Shown here one piece after another: positions 1 to 23,775 of a DNA stretch of 42,390 bases. Source of the DNA: Octopus sinensis (taxonomy: Eukaryota). The notes under the pieces are model-generated. The model did not search any database, was not told where the DNA came from, and saw only the letters and a program-made list of their open reading frames with translations. The position numbers and the translations under genes were made by a program. Numbering within the stretch: position 1 is the first letter of the stretch; each line of letters begins with the position of its first letter. The stretch is from NCBI RefSeq assembly GCF_006345805.1, contig NW_021835118.1, positions 1 through 42,390 of the forward strand, written 5' to 3'.

Positions 1-7
1 AACAGGA

Positions 8-82
8 ATCTTACTGAAGAGCCTACCTGAGTAAATAAATATTATTTTTATTGCTGAAAAAGGCGAAACTGCAGTCTAAGAT
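8..82 (+). ncRNA. Type I hammerhead ribozyme, family A, copy 1
   Basis: ATCTTA-CTGAAGA-GCCT..36 nt..AGGC-GAAA-CTGCAG-TC-TAAGAT. Stem I is 6 bp, the core is a canonical CUGANGA/GAAA, stem II is 4 bp, stem III is palindromic, and the cleavage triplet is GUC. Confidence 0.88.
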
Positions 83-407
83 GAACCGAGATAGTAAAAG
101 TTTTTATTTTCATTTCACTAATTTATCAAGCTTTGTGTATCTAGTACATACTTCGCCTTTAATGTACTTATATGAATAATATATGGCCTGTGCTAGAAAC
201 ACCAGCGATAATAATTAATTTTATTTTATCGCATTTTGAATTTGTTTACATATTTCTCGATAAATTTTGAGCGGTTAGACTATATACCAGAAATCCCTTG
301 TTGTCGGTACGTTCTGCGTCATGCGCAGTGAGCTGATTAGTTAGAAAGAGCAAATTAGTAGACGCACACTGTGTCGTCTATCGTGGTGCGATTTCAAAAT
401 AACAGGA

Positions 408-482
408 ATCTTACTGAAGAGCCTACCTGAGTAAATAAATATTATTTTTATTGATGAAAAAGGCGAAACTGCAGTCTAAGAT
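408..482 (+). ncRNA. Type I hammerhead ribozyme, family A, copy 2
   Basis: Same motif exactly 400 bp downstream of copy 1. Confidence 0.88.
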
Positions 483-662
483 GAACCGAGTTAGTAAAAG
501 TTTGATTTTCATTTCACTAAATTTATCAAGCTTCTGTGTATCTAGTACATACTTCGCCTTTAATGTACTTATATTGAATAAATATATGGCCTGTGCTAGA
601 ACACCAGCGATAATAATTAATTTTATTTTATCGCATTTTGAATTTGTTTATATATAATGTTA

Positions 663-710
<48 letters not shown>

Positions 711-711
711 T

Positions 712-749
<38 letters not shown>

Positions 750-960
750 CATAATATATATATATATGTATATATACATATATATATACATATATATACA
801 TATATATATACATATATATATATATATACATATATATATCATATATAGATATATATATATATATATATATACATATATATAATAATAAATATTAGGGAAT
901 AAATCCAAATTTACAGGCAAAAAATCAGATTTAGGATTAAATCCAATTTAAGTAAAATAT

Positions 961-1699: not shown

Positions 1700-3917
1700 A
1701 ACCAACGGACATAAACATGAAACACAAACACTTCATGTCCATAATACAAGCCATATGTGACAAATATGTCCCAATGTGCAGGCCAGCACACACAAGAACA
1801 AAAACAGGATCCCTAGAAAAAGGAGGATTCTTATGAGACGACGGACAAGGATTGCAAACCGCCTTAGCAAGCACACCAAAAGTGGTGAGAAGTCTCGGCT
1901 CGAAAGAATGCTAATGGAAACTGAGAAAATTCTACATCAGTCCCATGAAAGGAGAGAGCAGATAAAGAAGCTTGGTATAGAAAATATAAAATCAAACCCT
2001 AAAGCTTTCTTTAAGTTTGCCAAAGAGACAGCCACAGTGCACCAGAGAATAGGACCTCTCTTCCAAAAAGATGGCTCTCTCACAGGAAATCCCACGAGGA
2101 TAAGTGAAATACTGAACGAACAGTTCCAAAGTGTGTTCACTACACCTCTAGGACACAGGCAAGTAAACAACCCAGAAGAATCTTTGCCACTTTACCATCG
2201 GCCAAAGAGACAAAATTGAGTACATCAACATCGAAGAAGATGATATCACACTAGCCATTGATGAGATTGACACAAACTCAGCTGCTGGACCTGATGGATT
2301 CCCAGCGATCCTTCTCAAATCGTGCAAACGAGCCCTTGCAAAACCGCTACAGCTTCTTTTTCAGAGCTTTCTTGCAAGTTAAGCTCCCAGTCAAACTGAA
2401 AGAGGGGGTAATATGCCCTATCATAAGGGAAGTAGCAGAGCAGATGCTAAAAATTATAGGCCTATCTCTCTGACCTCACACATCAGCAAAGTCATGGAAC
2501 GAATAGTCCGTAAGAAACTAATCATGTTCCTTGAATAAAAGACTTACTGTCTGACACCCAGCATGGATTTCGACCAGGTAGAGGCTGCCTAACACAGCTC
2601 CTGCAACACTATGACTGGGTGTTGAAACAGCTACTAAATGGCTCAAATGTGGATGTTGAATATATCTCGACTTTGCAAAAGCCTTTGATAAAGTCGACCA
2701 TGGTATGATCTGTCACAACTGCGTGGTCTCGGCATAGGCGGGAAACTTGGAGAGTGGCTGCACAACTTCCTAAAAGACAGAAAACAGGCAGTTGTGAGCA
2801 ATGGAGCCACCTCCAGGAAACGCAAATAACAAGCGGTGTCCCACAGGGCACTGTCTTGGGGCCACTGATGTTCATAGTGGCCCTTTCAGACATGCCTTCA
2901 GTTGCTACGATGACCACCCTTGCTAGCTATGCAGATGACACAAAAGTCTCCCACGCAATACAAAACCCTGAAATATTGCGCATCTGCAACATGAGCTGGA
3001 CACAATATACAGGTGGGGCTGAGGACAACAACATGCAGTTTAATGCAGGTAAGTTCAGGCCCTGCGCTACTGGCACACAAAGGTAAATGACGTGAGACTG
3101 GATACACTGGCCCAGGAAGAATTGCAATCCCTGAGTCAAAATCAGTGCGTGACCTGGGCATTGACATGAGCAATGATGCATCTTTCCAAATGCATATTGC
3201 TAATCTGGTGATAAAATGCAGACGGCTAGCTACTGGATGGATTCTCCGAACTTTCAGAACAAGAGAGAAGGAGACACTGATGGTCCTATGGAAAACATTT
3301 GTCCTCAGCCGCTTGGACTACTGCTCCCAACTTTGGTCACCACACATATAAAACAAACAGCAGAACTCGAAGCAACTCAGAGAAGCTACACAAAAGAAAA
3401 TCGTCTCAATGCAAAATGTCAGCTACTGGAAAGACTGAAGGTATTAAACCTCTCTCTCCGGAGCGGAGGCGGGAGAGATATGCAGTGATATACATCTGGA
3501 AAATCCTGGAGGGTCTTGTCCCAAACTTTGGCATTCAAAGTTACTCCAACCGCAGAACGGGGCGCCGCTGCGTGGTGCCAAGGATTCCAACATCACCATC
3601 AAAATACAGGTCCAGATACTGCAACAGCTTGGGTTTCAGAGGACCACAGCTCTTTAACATCCTCCCTAAATGCCTGAGAGACTTACATGGTGTGGATGTG
3701 TTCTTTTAAAACTAAACTGGATCTCTTCTTGTTGGGAGTCCAGATGAACCTACCTCACGACAGGAGACACGGATGCGGGCAGCAGCATCGACTCCCTTGT
3801 TGATCAAGTGCCACGTATCAGAGGTGGATTCACAAACTAGTGTAGCTCATTAAGCGGTGGTGCCCCAGCATGGCCGCGGCCTTCGGGCTAAAACATTTTT
3901 ATGGATTTAAGGATTTA
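1700..3917 (+). mobile_element. CR1-clade LINE, 5'-truncated and frameshifted (RT and C-terminal part of ORF2 plus 3' UTR)
   Basis: Motifs across frames: IKSNPKAFF, DFAKAFDKVDHG, SGVPQGTVLGPLMF, YADDTK, RDLG, RLDYCSQLWSP, ERRRERY. The 3' end GGTGCCCCAGCATGGCC is shared with the other copies. Confidence 0.9.

Positions 3918-8379: not shown

Positions 8380-8425
<46 letters not shown>
7311..8425. repeat. Long (TA)n-type microsatellite
   Basis: Direct inspection. Confidence 0.95.
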
Positions 8426-8429
<4 letters not shown>

Positions 8430-11400
8430 AATGCCTCACACTAGGAGGGACAAAGTCATTACTACCAAAAATTATACTAATCATACCAAATAGTTTTGCA
8501 TTTTTCAAAGCAAGACATTTAAAAATGAATTATGTTCTGTATCACCGTGATTTCACATACAACTTGCGTCTAATGATCGTCAGCAGAACTGATTCTGAAT
8601 ACATCATAAATAAACTACCAACCTTACGTAGCGGAGACGAACAGACAACTGCTCACTCCGGCCAAGCACATGGAATGTTATAAATCATATATCCGGTAAA
8701 GGCGGGCTTTTACGAACTGCATGTGGGTAATGAAAAGTATTCGGAATAAGTTTAACAATTAAGGATAATCTCTTAATAAGGGATCTCTAACAAGAAATTA
8801 TCGGGTAGCTAGCGTGAAAAACCTCATAAAGAAAAGAATCCGAAAATAATTTTTTTCTTTTGAACAAATTAATTATATCTATATTGTATAGAGGGCATTA
8901 TTACACATAAATGCCTCACACTAGGAGGGACAAAGTCATTACTACCAAAAATTATACTAATCATACCCAAATGCAGTTTTTCAAAGCAAGACATTTAAAA
9001 ATGAATTATGTTCTGTATCACCGTGATTTCACATACAACTTGCGTCTAATGATCGTCAGCAGAGAACTGATTCTGAATACATCATAAATAAACTACCAAC
9101 CTTACGTAGCGGAGACGAACAGACAACTGCTCACTCCGGCCAAGCACATGGAATGTTTATAAATCATATATCCGGTAAATGGCGGGCTTTTACGAACTGC
9201 ATGTCGGGTAATGAAAAGTATTTCGGAATAAGTTTAACAATTAAGGATAATCTCTTAATAAGGGATCTTAACAAGAAATTATCGGGTAGCTAGCGTGAAA
9301 ACCTCATAAAAGAAAAGAATCCGAAAATATTTTTTTCTTTTGAACAAATTAATTATATCTATATTGTATAGAGGGCATTATTACACATAAATGCCTCACA
9401 CTAGGAGGGACAAAGTCATTACTACCAAAAATTATACTAATCATACCCAAATGCAGTTTTTCAAAGCAAGACATTTAAAAATGAATTATGTCTGTATCAC
9501 CGTGATTTCACATACAACTTGCGTCTAATGATCGTCAGCAGAACTGATTCTGAATACATCATAAATAAACTACCAACCTTACGTAGCGGAGACGAACAGA
9601 CAACTGCTCACTCCGGCCAAGCACATGGAATGTTTATAAATCATATATCCGGTAAATGGCGGGCTTTTTACGAACTGCATGTCGGGTAATGAAAAGTATT
9701 TCGGAATAAGTTTAACAATTAAGGATAATCTCTTAATAAGGGATCTTAACAAGAAATTATCGGGTAGCTAGCGTGAAAACCTCATAAAAGAAAAGAATCC
9801 GAAAATAATTTTTTCTTTTGAACAAATTAATTATATCTATATTGTATAGAGGGCATTATTACACATAAATGCCTCACACTAGGAGGGACAAAGTCATTAC
9901 TACCAAAAATTATACTAATCATACCCAAATGCAGTGTTTCAAAGCAAGACATTTAAAAATGAATTATGTTCTGTATCACCGTGATTTCACATACACTTGC
10001 GTCTAATGATCGTCAGCAGAACTGATTCTGAATACATCATAAATAAACTACCAACCTTACGTAGCGGAGACGAACAGACAACTGCTCACTCCGGCCAAGC
10101 ACATGGAATGTTTAAAATCATATATCCGGTAAATGGCGGGCTTTTTACGAACTGCATGTCGGGTAATGAAAAGTATTTCGGAATAAGTTTAACAATTAAG
10201 GATAATCTCTAATAAGGGATCTTAACAAGAAATTATCGGGTAGCTAGCGTGAAAACCTCATAAAAGAAAAGAATCCGAAAATATTTTTTTCTTTTGAACA
10301 AATTAATTATATCTATATTGTATAGAGGGCATTATTACACATAAATGCCTCACACTAGGAGGGACAAAGTCATTACTACCAAAAATTATACTAATCATAC
10401 CCAAATGCAGTTTTTCAAAGCAAGACATTTAAAAATGAATTATGTTCTGTATCACACCGTGATTTCACATACAACTTGCGTCTAATGATCGTCAGCAGAA
10501 CTGATTCTGAATACATCATAAAAAACTACCAACCTTACGTAGCGGAGACGAACAGACAACTGCTCACTCCGGCCAAGCACATGGAATGTTATAAATCATA
10601 TATCCGGTAAATGGCGGGCTTTTTACGAACTGCATGTCGGGTGTAATGAAAAGTATTTCGGAATAAGTTTAACAATTAAGGATAATCTCTTAATAAGGGA
10701 TCTTAACAAGAAATTATCGGGTAGCTAGCGTGAAAACCTCATAAAAGAAAAGAATCCGAAAATAATTTTTTCTTTTGAACAAATTAATTATATCTATATT
10801 GTATAGAGGGCATTATTACACATAAATGCCTCACACTAGGAGGGACAAAGTCATTACTACCAAAAATTATACTAATCATACCCAAATGCAGTTTTTCAAA
10901 GCAAGACATTTAAAAATGAATTATGTTCTGTATCACCGTGATTTCACATACAACTTGCGTCTAATGATCGTCAGCAGAACTGATTCTGAATACATCATAA
11001 ATAAACTACCAACCTTACGTAGCGGAGACGAACAGACAACTGCTCACTCCGGCCAAGCACATGGAATGTTTAAAAATCATATATCCGGTAAATGGCGGGC
11101 TTTTTACGAACTGCATGTCGGGTAATGAAAAGTATTTCGGAATAAGTTTAACAATTAAGGATAATCTCTTAATAAGGGATCTTAACAAGAAATTATCGGG
11201 TAGCTAGCGTGAAAACCTCATAAAAGAAAAGAATCCGAAAATAATTTTTTTCTTTTGAACAAATTAATTATATCTATATTGTATAGAGGGCATTATTACA
11301 CATAAATGCCTCACACTAGGAGGGACAAAGTCATTACTACCAAAAATTATACTAATCATACCCAAATGCAGTTTTTCAAAGCAAGACATTTAAAAATGAA

Positions 11401-12068
11401 TTATGTTCTGTATCACCGTGATTTCACATACAACTTGCGTCTAATGATCGTCAGCAGAACTGATTCTGAATACATCATAAATAAACTACCAACCTTACGT
11501 AGCGGAGACGAACAGACAACTGCTCACCGGCCAAGCACATGGAATGTTTAAAATCATATATCCGGTAAATGGCGGGTTTTTACGAACTGCATGTCGGGTA
11601 ATGAAAAGTATTTCGGAATAAGTTTAACAATTAAGGATAATCTCTTAATAAGGGATCTTAACAAGAAATTATCGGGTAGCTAGCGTGAAAACCTCATAAA
11701 AGAAAAGAATCCGAAAATAATTTTTTTCTTTTGAACAAATTAATTATATCTATATTGTATAGAGGGCATTATTACACATAAATGCCTCACACTAGGAGGG
11801 ACAAAGTCATTACTACCAAAAATTATACTAATCATACCCAAATGCAGTTTTTCAAAGCAAGACATTAAAAATGAATTATGTTCTGTATCACCGTGATTCA
11901 CATACCACTTGCGCAATGATCGTCAGCAGAACTGATTCTGAATACATCATAAATAAACTACCAACCTTACGTAGCGGAGACGAACAGACAACTGCTCACT
12001 CCGGCCAAGCACATGGAATGTTTATAAATCATATATCCGGTAAATGGCGGGTTTTTACGAACTGCATG
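8425..12068 (-). repeat. About 480-bp tandem array (about 7.6 units), one hammerhead per unit on the minus strand; retrozyme-like
   Basis: CATAAATGCCTCACACTAGG at about 8426, 8906, 9386, 9864, 10340, 10821, 11301 and 11777. Confidence 0.95.
8534..8589 (-). ncRNA. Type I hammerhead ribozyme, family C (first copy; repeated at about 9010, 9490, 9968, 10444, 10925, 11405, 11880 on - and 12163, 12637 on +, some with indels)
   Basis: Sense reads GTTCTG-CTGACGA-T-CAT-TA-GAC-GCAA-GTT-GT-ATG-T-GAAA-TCACGGTGA-TA-CAGAAC. Stem I is 6 bp, the core is intact, and stem III is self-complementary. Confidence 0.85.
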
Positions 12069-12950
12069 ATTTATAAACATTCCATGGCTTGGCCGGAGGA
12101 GCAGTTGTCTGTTCGTCTCCGCTACGTAAGGTTGGTAGTTATTTATGATGTATTCAGAATCAGTTCTGCTGACGATCATTAGACGCAAGTTGTATGTGAT
12201 CACGGTGATACAGAACATAATCATTTTTAATGTCTTGCTTTGAAAAACTGCATTTGGGTATGATTAGTATAATTTTTGTGGTAGTAATGACTTTGTCCCT
12301 CCTAGTGTGAGGCATTTATGTGTAATAATGCCTCTATACAATATAGATATAATTAATTTGTTCAAAAGAAAAAAATTATTTTCGGATTCTTTTCTTTTAT
12401 GAGGTTTTCACGCTAGCTACCCGATAATTTCTTGTTAAGATCCCTTATTAAGAGATTATCCTTAATTGTTAAACTTATTCGAAATACTTTTCATTACCCG
12501 ACATGCAGTTCGTAAAAAGCCCGCCATTTACCGGATATATGATTTATAACATTCCATGTGCTTGGCCGGAGTGAGCAGTTGTCTGTCGTCTCCGCTACGT
12601 AAGGTTGGTAGTTTATTTATGATGTATTCAGAATCAGTTCTGCTGACGATCATTAGACGCAAGTTGTATGTGAAATCACGGTGATACAGAAACATATTCA
12701 TTTTTAAATGTCTTGCTTGGAAAAACTGCATTTGGGTATGATTAGTATAATTTTTGGTAGTAATGACTTTGTCCCTCCTAGTGTGAGGCATTTATGTGTA
12801 ATAATGCCCTCTATACAATATAGATATAATTAATTTGTTCAAAAGAAAAAAATTATTTTCGGATTCTTTTCTTTTATGAGGTTTTCACGCTAGCTACCCG
12901 ATAATTTCTTGTTAAGATCCCTTATTAAGAGATTATCCTTAATTGTTAAA
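12066..12950 (+). repeat. Inverted continuation of the 480-bp array (about 1.8 units)
   Basis: Reverse complement of the same unit; the strand switches at an ATG microhomology at 12066-12068. Confidence 0.93.
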
Positions 12951-12969
12951 TATATACATATATATATAT

Positions 12970-15900
12970 TTTTGATTTTGATTTTTCCAGTTTCAGCTAA
13001 TGAGCTGTGGCCATGCTGGGGCACCGCCATTTGGTTTGCTACACGATTTTACCTCACGGATGCTTTTTAGCAAACGCCATCTGATGCATGAGAGAGTTCG
13101 ATGCAGCTGCCCTCATCTGCACCTCCTGCCGTGAAGTTGGTTCATCCGGGACACCTGACAGGAAGAGGTCCAGTCCTACTTTAAAGACAACCGCATCTAC
13201 ACCATGCAGGTCCCTCAGGTTCTTTGGGAGGATATTGAAGAGCTGTGGGCCTCTGAAGCCCAGGCAATCACAATATCTTGTCCTACATCTTGATGGCAAA
13301 TTTGGAGTCCTTGGTACTACGCAGTGGCGCCCGGTTCTGGCATTTGTGTGACTCTCCATGCCAAAGTTTGGGACAAGTCCTCCAGTATCTTCCAGATATA
13401 TTTATGGCATATCATTCTCGCTACGCTCCAGGGAATAGAGCTTAATCTCTTGAGTCTTCCCAGTAGCTCATATGCTGCACAGAGGCTATCTACTTCGTGT
13501 AGCTTCGTTGGATCGCCTCAAGTTCTGTGATCATCTTGACACTGGATGGTGACCATAGCTGAGAGCAATAGTCAAAGTGGCTTAGGACAAGTGTCTTCCA
13601 GGGGACCATCATGGTTTCTTGTTCTCTTGTTCTAAAGGTTCTGAGAATCCATCCAGCCATCCGTCTACATTTCATTGCCAGTTTAGCAACATGTACACGA
13701 AAGGTCGCGTCATCACTCATGTGAATACCCAGGTCACGCACTGATTGTGCCTCTAGGATCGCAATCCCTCCGGGTCCAGTGTATTCATTGGGTATTGCAT
13801 TCAGTTTTGCATGCTGATAGTATAAAACTTGAAACTTTTCAGTATTGAACTGCATGCTATTCTTTTCAGCCCACTTGTATATTTCGTCCAGCTCATATTG
13901 CAGGTGCTTAGTGTCTTCAGGGTTCTGTATTGCCTGTGAGACTTTTGTATCATCTGCATAACTTGTGATCGTGGCTCTCTGCGTGGCTGAGGGCATGTCT
14001 GAGAGGGCCATTATGAACAGTAGTGGTCCCAAAACAGTGCCCTGCGGAACACCGCTCACTATTTGCGTGTTAATGGAAGTGGCCCCATTGGCAGTTACCA
14101 CCTGACTTCTATTCTTCAGAAAGTCATGAAGCCATTCTCCTAATTTTCCAACTATGCCAAGATCACGCAGTTTGTGACATATCATTCCATGATCGACTTT
14201 ATCAAAGGCCTTTGCAAAGTCGAGATATATCACTACCACATTTGAGTGGTTGAGCAGTTGTTTCAGCACCCAGTCATAGTGTTGTAGGAGCTGAGTTAAG
14301 CAGCTTCTTCCTGGTCGGAAACCATGTTGGGTGTCAGGCAGCAAGTCATTTTCTTCAAGGAAGGTGATTAGTTTCCTTCTGACTATTCGTTCCATGACCT
14401 TGCTGATGTGTGAGGTTAGGGAGATAGGTCTGTAGTTCTTGGCTTCCGCTCTGCTACCTCCTTTATGAATGGGGCATATTTTACCTTCCTTCAGTTTTCT
14501 TGGAAGTTTGCCAGCTGCAAGGAAGCTCTGAAAGAGGAACTGCAGTGGTCTTGCTAGGACTCTCTTACTTACTTTTAGGAGGATTCCCGGGAATCCATCG
14601 GGGCCAGTAGCTGAGTCTGTTTTCATTTCATCGTCTTCCTTTATATCGATGTAATCTATCGTCGCCGCCTCTGATTTTATATCTGCAGTGGTAAAGATGT
14701 CCGTTGGATTGCTGATTTGGAGATGCCCCAGGAGTGGAGTGAAAACACTCTTGAATTGCTCATTCAGTATTTCACTTACCCTCATTGGTTTTCCTGTAAG
14801 TGTGCCATCCTTTTCAAGGAGTGGCCCTATTCTACAGTGCGCCGTAGCTGTTTCTTTGGCATACCTGTAGAAAGCTTTGGGGTTAGATTTTATGTTGTCT
14901 ATAGCCCAGGCTTCTTTGTCTGCTCTTTCCTTCTCATGGGAGAGTTGCAGACATTTTTCGATTTCCAACAGTTTTATCTTCAGGCGGGACTTTTCACTGC
15001 TTTCAATCTGTTTGTTTAGGCGATTTGAAAATTTTGTACGCCGTCTCATTAAAATTTTCCTCTCTCTGGGGATTTTGTTCTTGTGTACAGTGGCCTTTCT
15101 CTCTGGGACACATTTGTAGCATATGGCTTGCATTACAGACATGAATTGTTGAAGTTTCATGTCGATGTCCGGTGAGGAGTGACATTCAGGCCAGTTTTGT
15201 TTGAGGATCTCTTTCTCAATTTGTTTCCAGTTTGCCTTATTGAAGTTCAAGCTGGAAAGATTCTGAGAGTTTCTTGTAGGCTGCATGTCCATTGTTTCCT
15301 TTGGCCCGTACATGGTCAGCTCTACCATGTTCTGATCCTAGAGTGGTGTTGGCGTCACTTTCACATTATGGATGAGATCCATGTCATTTGTGAAGCAGAG
15401 AGCCAGTGTGTTACCTGCCCTGGTTGGTTGGAGTATTACTTGCTCCATGTACAGGGTGTTGATGACGTTCAGGAGGGACCTCGCCTGTCCCCGTTCACCT
15501 CGTGTCATTCCTGGGAGAGAAAGGCCCTCGGGCCATCTGACATTGGGCAGGTTGAAGTCTCCCATGAGAAGTACACTTATGTGCTGTTCTAGTGTGATTA
15601 GAACTTCTTCTATTTTTATAAGGCAGTCTTCAAACTTGCCCATATGGCTCGGGGAATCTGGAGGGCGATATGTAGCACACACAACTACACCAAGTTGCCT
15701 TACATGTACAATTAGTGTGTCACACACCGAGTTTGAGTATGACAAAAGGAACTGGGGTGTGAGGTCCTCACGGATGTACATAGCAACTCCTCCATGACTC
15801 CTTTATTTTCTGTCGGTCCGTAGTACAACATACTGTGGTATGTGTACTTCCGCATCCGCTATGTCCGGTTTCAGGTGTGTTTCCGTAAGTGCTATGCATA

Positions 15901-16175
15901 AGGCTTGATTGCATGCAACAAAGTCTCTCAAGAACGGGACTTTTGTCCTGTTACTGCGTGTTAGTAGTCCTCTGATGTTCAGTAGGAGCATCGAGGTGAG
16001 GTGTATGCTGTTGCCGGTGGTGTCCACCTTGGGTCTATTTGCTGAGGTGGTCTTGTGAACTGTGGGTAGTTCCATCTGCGAGCTTGAGTTTGATGGAGCC
16101 AGGTTAGCTGCTGTACAATCTTTTGTGCCATGCACAAAAAAGATTCTTGTTCAGCAGCTGCCCTTTCAACAACAC
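12970..16175 (-). mobile_element. CR1-clade LINE with nearly complete ORF2 and 3' UTR ending in an (AAAATC)-like tail
   Basis: APE endonuclease motifs ([28 protein letters not shown]) plus a 612-aa RT ORF (NYRPISLTS, QHGFRPGRSC, YLDFAKAFD, GVPQG, YADDTK). Confidence 0.93.
13054..16135 (-). pseudogene. LINE ORF2 (APE endonuclease + reverse transcriptase) broken into four ORF pieces
   Basis: ORFs 15803-16135, 15338-15781, 13490-15328 and 13054-13359 are consecutive parts of one protein. The breaks may be real or sequencing indels. Confidence 0.88.
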
Positions 16176-16176
16176 G

Positions 16177-16421
<245 letters not shown>

Positions 16422-16425
16422 AAAT

Positions 16426-17143
16426 ACCGCCGGCAACAACGTACACCACACCTCGATGCTCCTACTGAACATCAGAGGACTGCAAACACTCAGTAACAGG
16501 ACAAAAATCCCGTTCCTGAGACACTTTGTTGCATGCAATCAAGCCTTATGCATAGCACTTACGGAAACACACAGAGCTCGAGGCGATCCAACGTAGCTAC
16601 ACAAAGAAGATAGCCTCTATGCAGAATGTAAGCTACTGGGAAAGACTCAAGAGATTAAAACTATATTCCCTGGAGCGTAGGCAGGAAAGATATGCCATAA
16701 TATACATCTGGAAGATCCTGGAGGGACGTGTCCTGAACTTTGGCATCGAGAGTTACGCAAATGCCAGAACTGGGCGCCACTGCGTGGTGCCTAGGACTCC
16801 AAACTTGCCATCAAGATGTAGGACAAGATTCTGTGATAGCCTGGGCTTCCGAGGCCCACAGCTCTTCAATATCCTCCCGAAGAACCTGAGAGACCTGCAT
16901 GGGGTGGATGCAGATGTCTTTAAAATGAAGCTGGATCTCTTCCTGTCAGGTGTCCCGGATGGACCAACTTCACGGCAGGAGGGGCAGATGAGGGCAGCTG
17001 CATCGAACTCTCTCATGCAGCAAATGGCAGTTGCTAGAAAGCTTTCGTGAAGTGAAACCAAGTAGCAACACCAAATGGCGGTGCCCCAGCATGGCCACAG
17101 CTCATAAGCTGAAACTAGAATCAATCAATCAATCAATCAATCA
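16426..17143 (+). mobile_element. Internally deleted CR1 copy (endonuclease N-terminus fused to the 3' end), (AATC)n tail
   Basis: 16426-16572 matches the [12 protein letters not shown] region and is joined directly to the ELEAIQRSYTK region and 3' UTR. Confidence 0.88.
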
Positions 17144-19024: not shown

Positions 19025-19080
19025 ATGCATATATATATATATGTATATATATATTATATGTATATATATATATATATATA
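18452..19080. repeat. (TA)n/(TATG)n microsatellite
   Basis: Direct inspection. Confidence 0.95.
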
Positions 19081-20276
19081 AGTTTAACAATTAGGGATAA
19101 TCTCTTAATAAGGGATCTTAACAAGAAATTATCGGGTAGCTAGCGTGAAAACCTCATAAAAGAAAAGAATTCGAAAAGAATTTTTTTCTTTTGAACAAAT
19201 TAATTATATCTATATTGTATAGAGGGCATTATTACACATAAATGCCTCACACTAGGAGGGACAAAGTCATTACTACCAAAATTATACTAATCATACCCAA
19301 ATGCAGTTTTTCAAAGCAAGACATTTAAAAAATGAATTTAGTTCTGTATCACCGTGATTTCACATTCAACTTACGTCTAATGATCATCAGCAGAAACTGA
19401 TTCTGAACACATCATAAATAAACTACCAACCTTACGTAGCGAAGACGAACAGACAACTGCTCACTCCGGCCAAGCACATGGAATGTTTATAAATCATATA
19501 TCCGGTAAATGGCGGGCTTTTTACGAACTGCATTTCGGAATAAGTTTAACAATTAAGGATAATCTCTTAATAAGGGATCTTAACAAGAAATTATCGGGTA
19601 GCTAGCGTGAAAACCTCATAAAAGAAAAGAATTCGAAAATAATTTTTTTCTTTTGAACAAATTAATTATATCTATATTGTATAGAGGGCATTATTACACA
19701 TAAATGCCTCACACTAGGAGGGATTAGTATAATTTTGGTAGTAATGACTTTGTCCCTCCTAGTGTGAGGCATTTATGTGTAATAATGCCCTCTATACAAT
19801 ATAGATATAATTAATTTGTTCAAAAGAAAAAAATTATTTTCGAATTCTTTTCTTTTATGAGGTTTTCACGCTAGCTACCCGATAATTTCTTGTTAAGATC
19901 CCTTATTAAGAGATTATCCTTAATTGTTAAACTTATTCCGAAATACTTTTCATTACCCGACATGCAGGTCGTAAAAAGCCCGCCATTTACAGGATATATG
20001 ATTTATAAACATTCCATGTGCTTGGCCGGAGTGAGCAGTTGTCTGTTCGTCTTCGCTACGTAAGGTTGGTAGTTTATTTATGATATGTTCAGAATCAGTT
20101 CTGCTGATGATCATTAGACGTAAGTTGAATGTGAAATCACGGTGATACAGAACTAAATTCATTTTTTAAATGTCTTGCTTTGAAAAACTGCATTTGGGTA
20201 TGATTAGTATAATTTTGGTAGTAATGACTTTGTCCCTCCTAGTGTGAGGCATTTATGTGTATAATGCCCTCTATAC

Positions 20277-23519: not shown

Positions 23520-23775
23520 ATGTCCAGAGCATGGAGACCTGACGAGCTGGATTTATTCGTACAAGCATGGGAGTGCGCCGGCGGAGATAGCCCTAGCGAG
23601 GTGATTGCGGCTGCGCTGAAGAGCAGAGGCTACAAGAGGACAGCGGCTCAGATGGAGCGAAAGAGACAGGAATTGCACTTGTACGGTCGCACATTGGCGC
23701 ACTTGATGCCATCTTTGAGAACGAGCGGGGCAAAGATGGCAAGAATGGAGACGATGAAAGAAGTCACCCCCACCT
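23520..23775 (+). pseudogene. N-terminus of a Myb/SANT-like (trihelix-type) DNA-binding protein, truncated by rDNA IGS
   Basis: WRPDELDLFVQAW..IAAALKSRGYKRTAAQMERK fits the W-x3-E..IA..L...G..RT..Q...K pattern. The ORF reads on into IGS sequence from about 23775. Confidence 0.65.

Follow-up and report, generated by a model that had tools for sequence, protein, structure and literature searches.

A non-coding family of 400-bp tandem units in Octopus sinensis is very probably a non-autonomous Penelope-type element, that is, a non-LTR retrozyme, copied in trans by an RT/GIY-YIG protein of the Neptune clade. Two of its units lie at the start of contig NW_021835118.1 (C11589), whose first 42,390 nucleotides are the window analysed here (genome, 2.7 Gb). 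The retrozyme features found were a type I hammerhead in each unit, a short, low-GC, non-coding tandem unit, and dispersed copies ranging from monomers to multimers. The Penelope features found were a fixed internal 3' end, 5' truncation and partial tandems, with inverted copies only in a sister subfamily and a single tail. The preliminary description had offered a choice between a second retrozyme family and tandem pLTRs of a Penelope element. Its retrozyme reading stood, with non-coding units of ~400 bp in tandem at hundreds of loci, each with a type I hammerhead; the choice itself did not, as the insertion anatomy is Penelope-like and the two options appear to describe one lineage.

Two hammerhead-bearing units at the start of the contig

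Positions 1-650 of the window hold two tandem units with a 400-bp period. Only 1.6 units are present here because the window starts at the first base of the contig, which cuts off the left end of the array. The features are as follows.

1..400, + strand: putative retrozyme unit 1, left-truncated by the contig start; full-length copies 85-95% identical to it lie on many chromosomes
401..650, + strand: terminal partial unit 2 (unit positions 1-248, by alignment), which stops at the fixed 3' end of the family
8..82, + strand: type I hammerhead 1 (Rfam RF00163 and covariation)
408..482, + strand: type I hammerhead 2 (Rfam RF00163), predicted cut between 476 and 477
30..55, + strand: conserved extension helix within loop II (98.3% of alignment cells paired, one-sided changes only)
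68..75, + strand: stem III palindrome ACUGCAGU, through which two hammerheads are predicted to dimerise (duplex, -11.1 kcal/mol)
161..173, + strand: counterpart of the second fixed end, AATGTACT/TATA (slash, end), used by the inverted arms of the sister subfamily
226..271, + strand: internal copy of the fixed 3'-end site, GTTTA/CATAT at 244-253 (slash, end), followed by a CTCGA..TTGAG hairpin at 256-271; presumed start of reverse transcription
651..890, no strand: (TA)n microsatellite, the likely insertion target judging from the sequence and the family junctions

Rfam Hammerhead_1 matched both copies (36.3 bits vs a gathering score of 34, E = 1.3e-5). Hammerhead 1 consists of the core CTGAAGA (14-20), GAAA (65-68) and GTC (74-76), with the predicted cut between 76 and 77, a 6-bp stem I (ATCTTA/TAAGAT, 8-13/77-82) and stem II GCCT/AGGC (21-24/61-64). 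The perfect core, stem II, GAAA and GUC were thus found by Rfam and in the sequence where the preliminary description had placed them, the 400-bp period it reported is exact for the hammerheads, and the array ends at 650 with (TA)n from 651, as it had said. Its long AU-rich loop of stem II is present and was refined by the 9-bp extension helix conserved inside it. What it called a palindromic stem III is an 8-nt palindrome, but stem III itself comprises only 2 bp with a UGCA loop. Units 1 and 2 align with small indels at 96% identity. No ORF is present in the unit, whose longest stop-free frame is 46 aa.

Other elements in the window

A 478-bp tandem array (8425-12068, also ~12586-12969 and 19058-20169) carries a hammerhead-like core, CUGACGA..GAAA, on the minus strand; this core scored below the Rfam gathering score. 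The array, too, runs out into (TA)n, and inverted copies of it occur. Kinship between the 478-bp and 400-bp units was rejected, in agreement with the earlier remark that they share no similarity: local alignment gave scores of 21 and 23, at the level of the shuffled means (21.8 and 23.2) and equalled by 135 and 110 of 200 shuffles. An rDNA unit (18S, 5.8S and 28S with large GC-rich expansions) occupies 29524-38853, with spacer repeats of 141, 190 and ~850 bp at ~23600-29500 and 39500-41800, so that the contig joins rDNA to TA-rich repeat DNA. LINE-type endonuclease/RT fragments flanked by TA tracts lie at 1761-3709 and 13054-17050, including a 615-aa frame at 13490-15337 on the minus strand. 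Between two TA tracts, at ~885-1045, is a non-coding element of ~150 bp, and similar sequence occurs beside TA runs in L055, L074 and L117.

Conservation and predicted activity of the hammerhead

We parsed 124 hammerheads from the arrays and tallied base pairs on 119 of them. CG and UA occurred 83 and 34 times at pair 2 of stem II, and 91 and 26 times at pair 3; pair 4 was UA in 87 and CG in 24, and pair 6 of stem I was AU in 46 and CG in 27. Judged from these sequences, pairs 2-4 of stem II swap CG and UA in step and pair 6 of stem I changes from AU to CG, which are compensatory changes across subfamilies. In a 20-row alignment the hammerhead pairing was kept in 94.3% of cells, compared to 37-49% in slid controls, a comparison whose significance is overstated by the shuffle control since the 20 rows are mutually related; the MAFFT alignment also put stem II out of register in one subfamily.

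The active fold of the monomer was calculated at -8.1 kcal/mol, against -14.2 kcal/mol for the minimum-free-energy misfold, which buries the core. These energies, together with that of the ACUGCAGU duplex, would fit cleavage as a double hammerhead formed through the palindrome, a mode described for motifs with a short helix III (PMC4209133, in the part consulted). Minimum-free-energy folding of the 400-nt monomer was uninformative (z = -1.17). Self-cleavage of the transcript is predicted from covariation and folding. An A-C combination replaced G10.1-C11.1 in 29/119 hammerheads, and the core read CCGANGA in 46/119. Copies with A-C at 10.1-11.1 may be weak, and not all copies need be active; the consulted part of a 2026 preprint reports 8/9 Xenopus retrozyme dimers without cleavage (bioRxiv 10.64898/2026.07.22.740005).

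A dispersed family with several subfamilies

Exact 17-mers from the 3' half of the hammerhead occurred 647 times in the genome, 218 with GUC and 429 with GUA, compared to a single match of the reversed controls (0 and 1, respectively). A DNA search of the genome gave at least 128 matches on many chromosomes among the 40 of 842 candidates scored. The family is therefore dispersed and multicopy, from monomers up to multimers, with unit lengths of 379-441 bp and a longest head-to-tail array of 19.6 units. The GUA copies are subfamilies of the 400-bp unit (332 identical positions over ~400 in L216); a longer GUA sister subfamily of ~425 bp was 72-82% identical to the unit. One locus (L108) was dropped as a chance 17-mer match.

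Units within an array diverged by a median of 0.5% (166 pairs, mostly from the one 19.6-unit array), compared to 10.9% between loci (1487 pairs). This near-identity would fit one template per array; later homogenisation or growth of long arrays at the DNA level could also be read from these sequences, and mosaic variants occur within the long array L031. Pieces of the unit were present in contigs of sequencing runs labelled with four organisms (A-D). None of the runs containing the unit is on record as RNA, four possible-RNA contig sets contained low-depth fragments, and one 401-nt contig was not a closed circle.

Other hammerhead arrangements were also noted. In L033 (7754-9333), arrays of two subfamilies stand ~50 bp apart in the same orientation, probably because one inserted later into the TA flank of the other. 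A hammerhead family with GAAACUGCAGUC, a short stem II and unrelated flanks, often in inverted repeats, occurs in L148, L149, L150, L152 and L155 (about 1320-1800). The top Rfam matches among the 74 of 265813 candidates scored belong to a further type I family (L071, L074, L075 and L076, about 1490-1550) with the consensus GUAC CUGAAGA GACC..GGUC GAAACAUGUGUYGUAC.

Insertions share a 3' end and vary at the 5' end

We dissected 100 loci, one of which was a chance match, leaving 99 family loci. The 3' end fell at unit position ~247-253 in 94 of them and was nearly always followed by (TA)n; in the remaining five, one was ~50 nt longer (a tail, L009), one lay at an N gap and three ended elsewhere. 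This end, at unit position ~250, is internal to the unit and lies 172 nt 3' of the predicted cut. The same junction, the 3' end plus (TA)n, gave 145 exact matches genome-wide vs 0 for the controls, and 29 of 31 further arrays ended 162-199 nt after the last hammerhead. The family thus targets TA repeats; with TA repeats as flanks, no target-site duplication is readable.

The 5' ends, by comparison, fell all along the unit, in most cases at TA microhomologies, with some calls in TA-rich stretches uncertain by several bases. Among 96 3'-anchored insertions (from the first 100 listed of the 145 junction matches), 44 were shorter than 174 nt and 12 measured at least 574 nt. Fifty-five insertions extend far enough to come near the first cut site, and by a hand count from the locus list 52 of them continue across it. 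The template was therefore circular, uncleaved or jumped.

Links to Penelope elements

In the ~425-bp, 75-80% identical sister subfamily, 12/22 loci were head-to-head, and in nine of the 18 listed one arm ended near 170 and the other near 250. An inverted arm was found in 0/99 loci of the subfamilies nearer to the window's own. Inverted copies and tails (bioRxiv 10.1101/2021.04.23.441226) and two internal RT starts (PMC11167929) are Penelope features in the parts of these sources consulted. Head-to-head arms with two fixed ends are a Penelope hallmark.

The genome contains intact ORFs of 775-781 aa with RT, CxxxxCxxC and GIY-YIG, of Neptune type. The 3' end of one Neptune family reads GCATTTT..TTTTACA/(TA)n, and a CTCG..CGAG hairpin follows where its copies run on in tandem; the end of the 400-bp unit has a similar layout. 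End-anchored alignment to the unit gave p = 0.004, 0.043 and 0.050 for three related Neptune copies and 0.34-0.99 for six other 3' ends, in a test chosen after the likeness was seen and with positives that are related to one another. Unanchored local alignment of the unit with Neptune 3' ends was not significant (scores reached in 241-427 of 1000 shuffles), and a blastn search of 30 GIY-YIG locus records with the unit as query gave 0 matches. Among those 30 records there was no autonomous element with clear nucleotide homology to the unit; the GIY-YIG and Rfam genome searches scored 150 of 5029 and 74 of 265813 candidates, respectively, and a closer partner may lie outside them.

No RT plus GIY-YIG ORF continuous with a unit was present in the fetched loci, and tblastn with two intact Penelope ORFs found none continuous with a unit in sets of 100, 60 and 80 locus records, which overlap. 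The Penelope matches near arrays are separate elements; in the three inspected (L089, L045 and L038), their own 3' region and a microsatellite intervene. A pattern for the shared stem III with a shorter stem II matched 8 loci, none with a Penelope ORF or homology to the unit. An inverted hammerhead pair 9.6 kb apart on C2, seen from one side (L274), had no Penelope match within 1.5 kb, and its far side did not match the subfamily's pattern.

The Neptune pLTR in L053 (~410-455), with matching places in L051, L052, L054, L055 and L070, carries, ~90 nt from its 3' end, a degenerate sequence resembling a hammerhead, UUGAUAAGGUUC..GAACYGAAAC, in which the canonical CUGA is missing. Also in L053 (1674-3110), an upstream ORF of 479 aa that matches nothing in Pfam runs into the Neptune RT ORF and overlaps it, giving a two-ORF arrangement.

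5' ends at the predicted cleavage site

In the discovery set, 16/90 5' ends fell within unit positions 77-111, just 3' of the cut, an excess in an interval fixed after the data were seen (rate 4.4-fold; p = 4.6e-6 by exposure, p = 0.005 by the conditional test). The excess was not replicated in an independent set, with 1/31 5' ends in the interval (p = 0.94), a small set of 31 arrays mostly from GUA subfamilies. Pooling the two, with one N-gap locus left out, gave 17/120 (p = 0.03), and the four quarters of the unit were flat (31/30/25/34).

An excess of this kind would be expected if the template were mostly linear RNA cleaved by the ribozyme: RT would start at ~250, jump the held-together cut ends once and often halt at the cut 5' end on its second arrival, leaving a 573-bp 'full-length' insert. 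We consider this unlikely. The discovery interval was among the best of 400, three 5' ends map exactly to 77, and TA density at 77-111 is average. Against these stand the post hoc choice of the interval, its failure in the independent set, other hot spots (105 and 169) as strong as 77, and the finding that hammerhead cleavage is unnecessary in vitro (PMC11167929, in the part consulted). We also hold only as a tentative and rather doubtful proposal that Neptune RT starts at the TA-matching site 172 nt past the cut, crosses the cut first and then preferentially stops at the ribozyme-made 5' end, so that insertion ends would record the template in vivo. If this is true, hammerhead cleavage would shape the inserts of Penelope-type elements, one named Neptune family would be the helper, and a switch between single-arm and head-to-head two-site insertion would depend on the subfamily.

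Proposed mechanism and alternatives

We infer the following order of steps. Multimeric transcripts would cleave themselves after GUC76, probably as double hammerheads through ACUGCAGU, giving 400-nt monomers, some of which would be ligated into circles. A Penelope endonuclease, with Neptune as the presumed helper, would nick a TA tract, and RT would begin internally at unit ~248-250 (UUUA/CAUAU, a partial match to the target). On a circular or uncleaved template it could cross the cleavage junction and cover anything from part of one round to ~19 rounds. The new 5' end would then be joined to the target at a random position, in most cases where there is a TA microhomology.

Other histories could produce tandem units in TA repeats. 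The units may be a satellite spread at the DNA level, through extrachromosomal circles and unequal crossing over, with the hammerhead as a passive relic; the 19.6-unit array with its mosaic variants speaks for this, but neither the polarity of the insertions (fixed 3' end, variable 5' end, 44/96 shorter than 174 nt) nor the compensatory changes across subfamilies would be expected from DNA recombination, and we regard it as very unlikely. LINEs and SINEs, too, show 5' truncation and simple repeats at the 3' flank, and LINE RT fragments are abundant in the window. A SINE-like element moved by a LINE, and not by a Penelope protein, has to be weighed as well. Such an element is highly improbable here: the 3' end lies inside a tandem unit and not at an RNA end, and the head-to-head arms, two fixed ends and tail are Penelope features (PMC11167929; bioRxiv 10.1101/2021.04.23.441226; parts consulted).

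We find it extremely improbable that a coding Penelope element lies beyond the contig start and that the two units are the tandem pLTRs closing its 3' end. The sequence upstream of the contig start is missing, and Penelope pLTRs carry hammerheads (PMC4209133, in the part consulted) and end in microsatellites, as this reading would have it. In every other locus examined, however, the array gives way to flanking DNA or TA repeat a few units upstream at most; none has an ORF continuous with the array, and head-to-tail repeats reach 19.6 units. Copying of a non-coding element in trans by a Neptune-clade protein remains our preferred reading.

Comparison with known systems

Retrozymes of this kind are a known class, to which the locus adds a member and a test case and no new system. 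A plant-type LTR retrozyme was rejected, as the hammerheads have type I topology in head-to-tail units, not type III topology within LTRs. Animal non-LTR retrozymes, as described in the consulted passages of Cervera and de la Pena 2020 (PMC7229834), are low-GC, non-coding tandem units of 150-450 bp (350-390 bp in mussel), each carrying a canonical type I hammerhead whose helix III has 2 bp and a tetraloop. The octopus family is alike in its short, non-coding, low-GC units, type I hammerhead and 2-bp helix III; it differs in the long conserved extension of stem II, and TA-microsatellite targeting and a fixed internal 3' end are features absent from those passages. Circles and cleavage were demonstrated for the retrozymes of PMC7229834; in the octopus family cleavage is predicted and circles are presumed. 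A term search of the octopus repeat annotation (PMC13282606), in the part consulted, found retrozymes and ribozymes unmentioned, and bioRxiv supplements may list similar families.

In the parts of the sources consulted, the role of the hammerhead in endonuclease-bearing Penelope elements is called unclear (bioRxiv 10.1101/2021.04.23.441226), and the mechanism of retrozyme mobilisation is said to be still to be worked out (bioRxiv 10.64898/2026.07.22.740005). The octopus family offers a short template, a defined RT start, a (TA)n target, several subfamilies and an intact candidate enzyme in the same genome. With a defined template and an enzyme in one genome, circular, linear and uncleaved templates can therefore be tested in vitro.

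The closest likenesses are to Penelope elements and their derivatives, as far as the consulted parts of the sources describe them. Neptune-clade elements (Craig et al., bioRxiv 10.1101/2021.04.23.441226) share the microsatellite bias, 5' truncation, partial tandems, inverted 5' copy, tail and pLTR hammerhead; the octopus element differs in having no ORF. Like the octopus family, Poseidon PAc of Anolis (Frangieh et al. 2024, PMC11167929) has internal RT starts downstream of the hammerhead, at two stem-loop sites, together with AT-rich targets and a tail. PAc, an autonomous element, initiates at a site that lacks homology to its target, whereas the octopus fixed ends are at TA-like motifs; the two sites of the sister subfamily lie ~80-95 nt apart on opposite arms, compared to the two stem-loop starts of PAc. 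Li, Clavereau and Pollet (bioRxiv 10.64898/2026.07.22.740005) agree with us on where retrozymes come from and how they are mobilised. They argue from co-occurrence and pLTR homology in vertebrates, we from the anatomy of insertions in an invertebrate, in which no clear pLTR homologue was found.
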